Of a stretch of 19,380 nt of DNA, positions 3,006-7,359 are shown in pieces; position 1 is the stretch's first letter, and each line of letters opens with the position of its first letter. The notes under the pieces were generated by a model that did not search any database, was not told the origin of the DNA, and was given only the letters and a program-made list of their open reading frames with translations. The DNA comes from Escherichia coli (GTDB taxonomy: Bacteria; Pseudomonadota; Gammaproteobacteria; Enterobacterales; Enterobacteriaceae), in assembly GCF_003334355.1 (NCBI RefSeq), contig NZ_QOWP01000048.1, one strand, 5' to 3'. The position numbers and the translations under genes were made by a program.

Positions 3006-6113
<3,108 letters not shown>

Positions 6114-6180
6114 CAGGCTGGCATGTTTCACCTTTTTGTTATTAACTTGTTAACAACAAAAATGACAAACAAGGTTAAAC

Positions 6181-7359
6181 ATGCCTTCGCCCTCGCATCC
6201 CGTAGAACGCTTTTCTTTCAGCACCGCGCTTTTCGGGATGCTGGTTCTGACCTTAGGTATGGGTTTAGGCCGCTTCCTTTATACGCCTATGTTGCCCGTC
6301 ATGATGGCGGAAGGATCGTTTTCATTTAGCCAGCTCTCGTGGATTGCCAGCGGCAACTATGCGGGGTATCTGGCTGGCAGTCTGCTATTTTCGTTTGGCG
6401 CATTTCACCAGCCATCGCGCCTGCGCCCATTTCTGTTGGCTTCTGCCCTGGCGAGCGGGTTGTTGATCCTCGCAATGGCATGGTTGCTGCCATTTATTCT
6501 GGTGTTATTGATTCGCGTCCTGGCGGGTGTCGCCAGCGCCGGTATGCTGATTTTTGGTTCGACGCTGATTATGCAGCACACGCGCCATCCTTTTGTGCTG
6601 GCAGCTTTGTTTTCTGGCGTTGGCATTGGCATCGCACTGGGCAATGAATATGTTCTGGCAGGCCTGCATTTTGACCTCTCCTCGCAAACGTTATGGCAAG
6701 GCGCCGGGGCGCTTTCTGGCATGATGCTGATTGCACTTACGCTTTTAATGCCCTCGAAAAAACACGCCATCACACCAATGCCATTGGCAAAAACGGAGCA
6801 ACAGATAATGAGCTGGTGGTTACTGGCTATTCTGTACGGCCTGGCGGGATTTGGTTATATCATCGTCGCGACTTACCTGCCGCTCATGGCGAAAGATGCA
6901 GGCTCACCATTGTTAACCGCCCATCTCTGGACGTTAGTCGGCTTATCAATTGTGCCTGGTTGCTTTGGCTGGCTATGGGCAGCAAAACGTTGGTGGGCTT
7001 TGCCCTGCCTGACGGCGAATTTGCTGGTGCAGGCTATCTGTGTGCTGCTTACTCTCGCCAGCGACTCGCCTCTCTTGCTTATCATCAGCAGTCTTGGTTT
7101 TGGCGGTACCTTTATGGGCACGACATCTCTGGTGATGACTATCGCCCGCCAACTGAGCGTACCGGGAAATCTCAATCTTTTAGGCTTTGTGACGCTCATT
7201 TACGGCATTGGACAAATCCTCGGCCCGGCGCTGACCAGTATGCTCGGCAATGGAACATCGGCGCTTGCCGGCGCCACTCTCTGCGGCGCGGCGGCGTTGT
7301 TTATTGCTGCGCTTATCAGCACAGTACAATTATTTAAGCTGCAAGTGGTCACTTCATGA
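6181..7359 (+). CDS. yjiJ: MFS-like inner membrane transporter YjiJ (392 aa)
   Basis: 392-aa ORF, highly hydrophobic with many predicted helices. AAGG at 6171-6174 upstream of ATG 6181. Recognised as YjiJ. Confidence 0.85.

Follow-up and report, generated by a model that had tools for sequence, protein, structure and literature searches.

What is the role, if any, of a short palindrome that lies between two co-oriented genes of the Escherichia coli chromosome, directly upstream of yjiJ? The stretch of DNA analyzed here (the window; 19,380 nucleotides of contig NZ_QOWP01000048.1) is a segment of the E. coli chromosome that carries, in order, yjiN, yjiM, yjiL, ytiA, yjiK, yjiJ, kptA, yjiH, yjiG, iadA, hypT, iraD, uxuRBA, gntP, and fimH. 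Within it, yjiK, which encodes an SdiA-regulated-domain protein, ends at position 6113 with a TAA stop codon (6111-6113), and yjiJ (6181-7359), which encodes an MFS transporter of the YbfB/YjiJ type, begins at an ATG (6181-6183) preceded by the Shine-Dalgarno (SD) sequence AAGG (6171-6174), all on the plus strand; kptA follows yjiJ on the minus strand. The frame of yjiK is open from an ATG at 5142 (5142-5252, plus strand; 323 aa), overlapping the end of ytiA, and RefSeq places the start at about 5253 (286 aa); the shorter form is favored because the part of the O157 and Citrobacter proteins that can be aligned starts no earlier than residue 38. The palindrome falls within the 67-bp spacer that separates yjiK from yjiJ, a spacer whose sequence in the window is 100% identical to that of CFT073-type genomes. 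Of 5426 E. coli genomes, 5377 have this spacer exactly once, which rules out a repeated or mobile element of the ERIC or REP kind.

The original prediction described a palindrome with extended T5/A5 arms and suggested either an operator or a weak terminator after yjiK. The letters are as it gave them, namely TTGTTAACAA at 6147-6156, TTTTTGTT at 6133-6140, and AACAAAAA at 6155-6162, but the arms are not concentric with the palindrome (the outer T5/A5 arms are centered at 6147.5 and the inner 10-bp palindrome at 6151.5), so they form no single extended palindrome. The palindrome ends 15 nt upstream of the yjiJ SD, its center lying about 20 nt upstream, and the 30-mer folded alone gives a weak hairpin (-4.1 kcal/mol, z = -1.3). 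Perfect 10-bp palindromes number 12 in the window against 23.4 +/- 4.8 in 100 dinucleotide-preserving shuffles; this one is not beyond chance and is unremarkable. What does exceed chance is the direct repeat TGTTA-N6-TGTTA, the score of the site against an ArcA matrix, and a hairpin spanning the spacer. The observation was real, and the palindrome per se is incidental.

A direct-repeat ArcA-P box upstream of yjiJ

ArcA is an oxygen-responsive regulator that receives its phosphate from ArcB when oxygen is absent or scarce and the quinone pool is reduced. Two ArcA-P molecules, arranged head to tail, bind direct repeats, and the outcome is mostly repression of transcription. The ArcA box has been defined as an 18-bp sequence containing two direct-repeat (DR) elements 11 bp apart, center to center (Park et al., 2013, PMC3798270). 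A sequence of this form, TTGTTATTAACTTGTTAA, occupies 6136-6153 on the plus strand, its two direct repeats likewise 11 bp apart from center to center; the published 21-mer runs on to 6156. The motif TGTTA-N6-TGTTA spans 6137-6152, with TGTTA cores at 6137-6141 and 6148-6152, and occurs once in the window where 0.02 occurrences are expected. DR1, TTGTTATTAA (6136-6145, plus strand), is rated at 10.87 bits, and DR2, which is the 10-bp palindrome itself (TTGTTAACAA, 6147-6156, plus strand), at 11.69 bits (PMC3798270, Table S4).

A weight matrix was built from 115 published ArcA boxes (PMC3798270, Table S3), the yjiJ site not being among them. Against this matrix 6136-6153 scored 20.3 bits, the maximum for the window and about 5 bits above the runner-up; only five of the 115 training boxes, which range from 9.6 to 21.9 bits with a median of 16.0, outscore it, and of 100 shuffled windows of 19.4 kb only 2 contain any site of 20 bits or more. 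The runners-up were a reverse-strand box overlapping the site (15.1 bits) and then a match at iraD (14.2 bits). The latter, ATGTATTTGATATGTTAT, is an independent match at the 5' end of iraD (12243-12260, minus strand), and a further match of 9.5 bits lies just upstream of it (12294-12311). No third DR element was seen by eye at 11 bp to either side of the E. coli yjiJ box, the nearest sequence, ATGTTTC (6123-6129), being 13 bp off.

The feature is in fact already known: it is the ArcA-P box mapped upstream of yjiJ in 2013 (PMC3798270). Table S1 of that study lists an ArcA ChIP-seq region for yjiJ with peaks at 4560669 and 4560714, enriched 2.8-fold in both replicates, and a minus-strand ArcA-P box of 20.3 bits at 4560740. 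Table S4 gives the site as 4560723-4560743, minus strand, TTGTTATTAACTTGTTAACAA, which is identical to 6136-6156 of the window letter for letter; across the box the K-12 sequence and the window do not differ. That ArcA occupies this site in vivo in anaerobic K-12 has been shown (PMC3798270). The enrichment is low for so strong a motif, and this speaks against an ArcA-P operator here, as does the size of the expression response. Table S8 groups yjiJ with operons, 31 in all, that are poorly expressed and have an ArcA region upstream; the yjiJ entry reads "no TSS" and records neither a Fur nor an H-NS peak. Its log2 expression on anaerobic microarrays was 6.61 in the wild type and 7.35 in the arcA deletion, against an expression cut-off of 8 (PMC3798270). 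Because the change of about 1.7-fold fell below the authors' expression threshold, yjiJ was not counted as regulated (PMC3798270). The direction of the change is that expected for repression, both values lying below the cut-off.

The site resembles other E. coli ArcA-P boxes (e.g., those of icdA, lpdA, and rutR, atgttattaatctgttaa) in its two TGTTA repeats, their 11-bp spacing, and the A/T-rich spacer between them, in being occupied by ArcA in anaerobic ChIP-seq, and in lying directly upstream of the start codon of its gene (PMC3798270); its 18-bp score falls in the top 5% of the verified boxes. It departs from ArcA-P boxes at large in its low occupancy and in having only two DR elements, and from classical promoter-region ArcA sites in sitting in a 67-bp spacer between co-oriented genes. 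Sites of the OmpR/PhoB family, such as the PhoB box with its 7-bp repeats and 11-bp period, share the architecture of tandem direct repeats one helical turn apart, the PhoB repeat being CTGTCAT where the ArcA repeat at yjiJ is TGTTA. In this family a dimer of phosphorylated winged-helix proteins occupies the tandem repeats in head-to-tail arrangement. This mode of binding is also discussed by Park et al. (PMC3798270).

We consider it very probable that the palindrome forms the DR2 element of an ArcA-P operator built of two direct repeats, TTGTTATTAAC-TTGTTAACAA (6136-6156), through which ArcA-P would lower yjiJ transcription. Counted from the yjiJ start codon, the operator extends from 45 to 25 bp upstream, and it reads on the same strand as the gene. 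An ArcA-P dimer would sit head to tail on the two TGTTA repeats, which are one helical turn apart; once bound, it would reduce transcription of yjiJ, whether by covering a weak, yjiJ-specific promoter overlapping the box or by impeding read-through from yjiK. The dyad symmetry of TTGTTAACAA would then be a by-product of the DR2 sequence and not a recognition feature.

Any such promoter would be a poor match to the consensus. A sigma-70 scan at 9/12 or better found no match in the spacer, and in a relaxed scan the best two candidates, both at only 8/12, overlap the ArcA box; this too counts against the proposed operator. The first pairs a -35 TTGTTA (6136-6141) with a -10 AAAAAT (6158-6163) across 16 bp, and the second pairs CTGGCA (6118) with TATTAA (6140-6145), again across 16 bp, with a possible extended -10 (TG, 6137-6138) inside DR1; both are on the plus strand. 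The supplements of a SMRT-Cappable-seq study hold no entries for yjiJ, yjiK, or yjiL, a negative that is uninformative.

Conservation of the box

Loci around yjiJ homologues were collected from 44 genome assemblies by a protein-based scan, together with seven look-ups by exact protein. The yjiK-yjiJ pair was found in Escherichia, in Citrobacter sedlakii, C. amalonaticus, and C. farmeri, and in Intestinirhabdus. When 15 Escherichia and Citrobacter spacers were aligned, the sole invariant block was TTGTTA..AA.TTGTTA; outside it, invariance was confined to the stop codon, the ATG, a single G in the SD, and two isolated bases. By this alignment, conservation follows a direct repeat of 11-bp period and not a dyad. 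The orthologous boxes score 20.3 bits in eight Escherichia alleles, 19.0 in locus L051, 23.0 in C. sedlakii, and 18.3-21.5 in C. amalonaticus and C. farmeri. The spacer of Intestinirhabdus alba lacks a good box (best 13.0 bits), a point against the ArcA assignment.

ArcA-like boxes also accompany yjiJ in other gene contexts. The E. fergusonii gene follows an aminotransferase gene and has, 55 bp ahead of its ATG, a 22.5-bit box followed 11 bp later by a third DR, while the homologues of the C. freundii group, Salmonella, Kluyvera, and Pseudocitrobacter have a box of 14-17.7 bits on the opposite strand at about -70, in a strongly conserved upstream block. These occurrences indicate that the association goes with yjiJ rather than with yjiK, which favors a yjiJ-specific operator, although in most species lacking yjiK the box is weaker and on the opposite strand, which weighs against it.

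The upstream block shared by homologues without yjiK (loci L007, L010, L011, L013-L016, L018-L028, L030, L032, L036, L038, L041, and L043) extends from about -95 to -40 relative to the yjiJ start and reads TTTTATT(T/A)ACTTTTTATTATCATTT...GTAATATAACAAT. Its minus strand contains the ArcA-like box ATGATAATAAAAAGTTAA (14-17.7 bits), and the remainder includes an ATTATC (Fur-like) hexamer and another TTGTTAT. Homologues at 56-58% identity have a divergently transcribed upstream gene (start ATGAACAGTACC), a putative LysR-type regulator from its N-terminal sequence. Within E. coli, a divergent allele of the yjiK-yjiJ pair, with about 81% identity over 501 bases but an identical ArcA box, is found in about 595 of 5344 genomes, those of O157:H7 and O145 strains; in O157:H7 strain F8492 (locus L001, 2372-4460) this allele is flanked by espX6 and a frameshifted iatD and not by yjiML and kptA.

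Alternative readings of the spacer

Among the alternatives to an ArcA-P operator, the one best sustained concerns the RNA: a hairpin that, alone or beside the ArcA site, would pair the SD and AUG, so that yjiJ would be poorly translated from read-through mRNA. We regard this as a serious possibility, somewhat short of an even chance. It is compatible with an ArcA operator and does not exclude one, the 5' arm consisting of an anti-SD CCUU together with ArcA-box sequence. The hairpin is a prediction only, and it takes in the entire yjiK-yjiJ spacer (6120-6185, plus strand), its main stem beginning 6 nt after the yjiK stop codon. Folding of 6105-6200 yields -32 kcal/mol (z = -7.1), and none of 200 shuffles folds as well; K-12 gives -25 kcal/mol (z = -4.5) and the O157 allele -18 kcal/mol (z = -2.2). 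A repeat finder likewise describes the spacer as a long imperfect inverted repeat, with arms at 6124-6146/6149-6171 (I1) and 6120-6137/6168-6185 (I2).

The predicted structure, on the plus strand, has a lower stem (6120-6128 with 6177-6185 and 6130-6134 with 6171-6175), a middle stem (6135-6143 with 6161-6169), and an apical stem (6147-6151 with 6155-6159). It pairs GGCAUGUUU with AAACAUGCC, the latter containing the start codon, so that the AUG (6181-6183) lies opposite CAU (6122-6124), and it pairs ACCUU with AAGGU, setting the SD AAGG (6171-6174) opposite CCUU (6131-6134); DR1 pairs with AAUGACAAA. At 37 C the predicted unpaired probability is 0.02 for the SD and 0.00 for the AUG.

Comparative data give the hairpin partial support. 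In 13 of 14 spacers the region from -15 to +3 is predicted to be unpaired with a probability of 0.13-0.26; shuffling the upstream part raises this to 0.37-0.60, and no more than 3% of shuffles give so low a value. Locus L055 is the case in which occlusion of the ribosome-binding region is not significant. If the RNA starts inside the ArcA box, the value rises to 0.44-0.87, and yjiJ orthologues without yjiK upstream have no consistent occlusion of the ribosome-binding site (RBS), as the hairpin reading would have it. The Citrobacter spacers, 11-13 nt longer and of differing sequence, still pair UACCCAUU with AAUGGGUA (SD) and GCC with GGC beside the AUG. RNAalifold run on a MAFFT alignment found no consensus structure, since indels put the 3' arms of Escherichia and Citrobacter out of register; therefore only the gap-free lower stem and per-sequence accessibility were tested. 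In the lower stem 76% of alignment cells are paired, against 24-41% with the partner slid, and five pairs are changed on both sides (13 cells), values reached in none of 500 shuffles. The changes are U-A to C-G (twice in Citrobacter and once in O157), G-C to A-U in L051, and G-C to U-A in C. sedlakii; they come from few lineages and so are not independent.

Other observations count against the hairpin. The upper stem is in a different register in Escherichia and Citrobacter, and a search of 5800-6500 against Rfam 15 gave no covariance-model match at E <= 1. An RNA thermometer of the fourU-like type was ruled out, the predicted unpaired probability of the SD staying at 0.01-0.03 across 25-45 C. 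Classical termination-coupled unmasking was likewise not predicted, a ribosome at the yjiK stop codon freeing the AUG in part (0.47) and the SD not at all (0.02). Compared with known RBS-sequestering intercistronic hairpins, the spacer is alike in that the predicted stable stem spans the downstream SD and AUG and starts a few nucleotides past the upstream stop codon, and in that compensatory changes, drawn from few lineages, may maintain the pairing; it is unlike them in that a ribosome terminating at yjiK is predicted to leave the yjiJ SD paired and in that the 5' arm doubles as a DNA operator. A predicted RBS-masking hairpin that shares the sequence of the operator appears to be new and would be a modest addition.

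Two further sequence features surround the yjiJ start. The leader AACAACAAAAAUGACAAAC (6152-6170, plus strand) is an A-rich run of A-A-N/A-R-N triplets whose sequence is not conserved in O157; runs of this type can be bound by Hfq, through its distal face, or by ribosomal protein S1. Codons 5-20 of yjiJ contain a perfect 8-bp, G+C-rich inverted repeat, GCATCCCG (6195-6202) and CGGGATGC (6234-6241), on the plus strand with 31 nt between the arms, and the stretch CGCATCCCGTAGAACG is kept even in the 81%-identical O157 allele, while the codons before it vary.

The two levels could also be joined. As DNA, the 21 bp would be the ArcA-P operator of a weak internal yjiJ promoter and, as read-through RNA, the 5' arm of a hairpin hiding the SD and AUG, so that only ArcA-gated internal starts would be translatable. 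This combined model is, in our estimate, unlikely. If it held, the sources of read-through would include a reported sigma-70 promoter upstream of yjiK and a sigma-54 site inside yjiK, and transcription of the upstream yjiMLK genes would not carry over into production of the transporter, which would be made only with ArcA inactive. The intragenic sigma-54 motif, ACGGCAAAGAAATTGCA (site IS54), was reported by Bonocora et al. (2015; PMC4591121). In the window it lies at 5398-5414 on the plus strand, in sense orientation and 767 bp upstream of yjiJ, and if active it would yield read-through RNA containing the hairpin.

A palindromic operator, in which a dimeric helix-turn-helix regulator would recognize TTGTT/AACAA, was the implicit model of the original prediction. 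A perfect 10-bp dyad is present in most E. coli alleles and also creates the overlapping ArcA-like box of 15.1 bits in the opposite orientation (TTGTTGTTAACAAGTTAA, 6142-6159, minus strand), both of which would suit such a regulator; that reverse-strand box is probably incidental because it depends on the AACAA half, which is not conserved. This right half reads AACTC in O157, ACTCA in L051, AACAT in L039, and ACTCT, ACCAT, or ACCCT in Citrobacter, whereas neither the left half nor the repeat upstream of it varies; the window, K-12, and the O157:H7 allele agree fully over the left part, TTTTTGTTATTAACTTGTTAAC, and the A5 arm is not conserved in the O157 allele, L051, or Citrobacter. With 10-bp palindromes also commoner in shuffled sequence than in the window, we judge a dyad operator very improbable. 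Comparison across genomes, then, upholds the two TTGTTA cores, invariant in all 15 spacers, and not the right half of the palindrome; and the idea of an operator stands to the extent that a ChIP-seq-supported ArcA-P site has been published here (PMC3798270), the relevant symmetry being that of a direct repeat and not of a palindrome.

Intrinsic termination of yjiK transcripts, the other function first proposed, is scarcely credible: a hairpin does follow the yjiK stop codon directly, but the stem of the local 30-mer is A/U-rich and as weak as noted above, it is followed by an A-run, no U-tract comes after either this small hairpin (AAAAAUG after 6159) or the large one (CUUCGCCC after 6185), the latter ending inside the yjiJ coding sequence, a terminator scan lists nothing from 5755 to 6441, and neither yjiK nor yjiJ appears in the Term-seq supplementary files searched (Adams, 2021), a negative of little weight.

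Significance of the yjiJ site

As an ArcA-P operator, the yjiJ site adds nothing to the published map of the ArcA regulon, and the gene it precedes is a poorly expressed transporter. The case illustrates that what looks like a palindrome in an A/T-rich spacer can be one half of a direct-repeat site for a response regulator. The spacer is also a compact candidate for one sequence serving as both a DNA operator and the anti-RBS arm of an RNA. The link between ArcA and yjiJ is conserved across Enterobacteriaceae in differing gene contexts, which argues that the weak K-12 ChIP peak reflects a real regulatory connection and hints that the substrate of YjiJ may be relevant to aerobic or respiratory metabolism.
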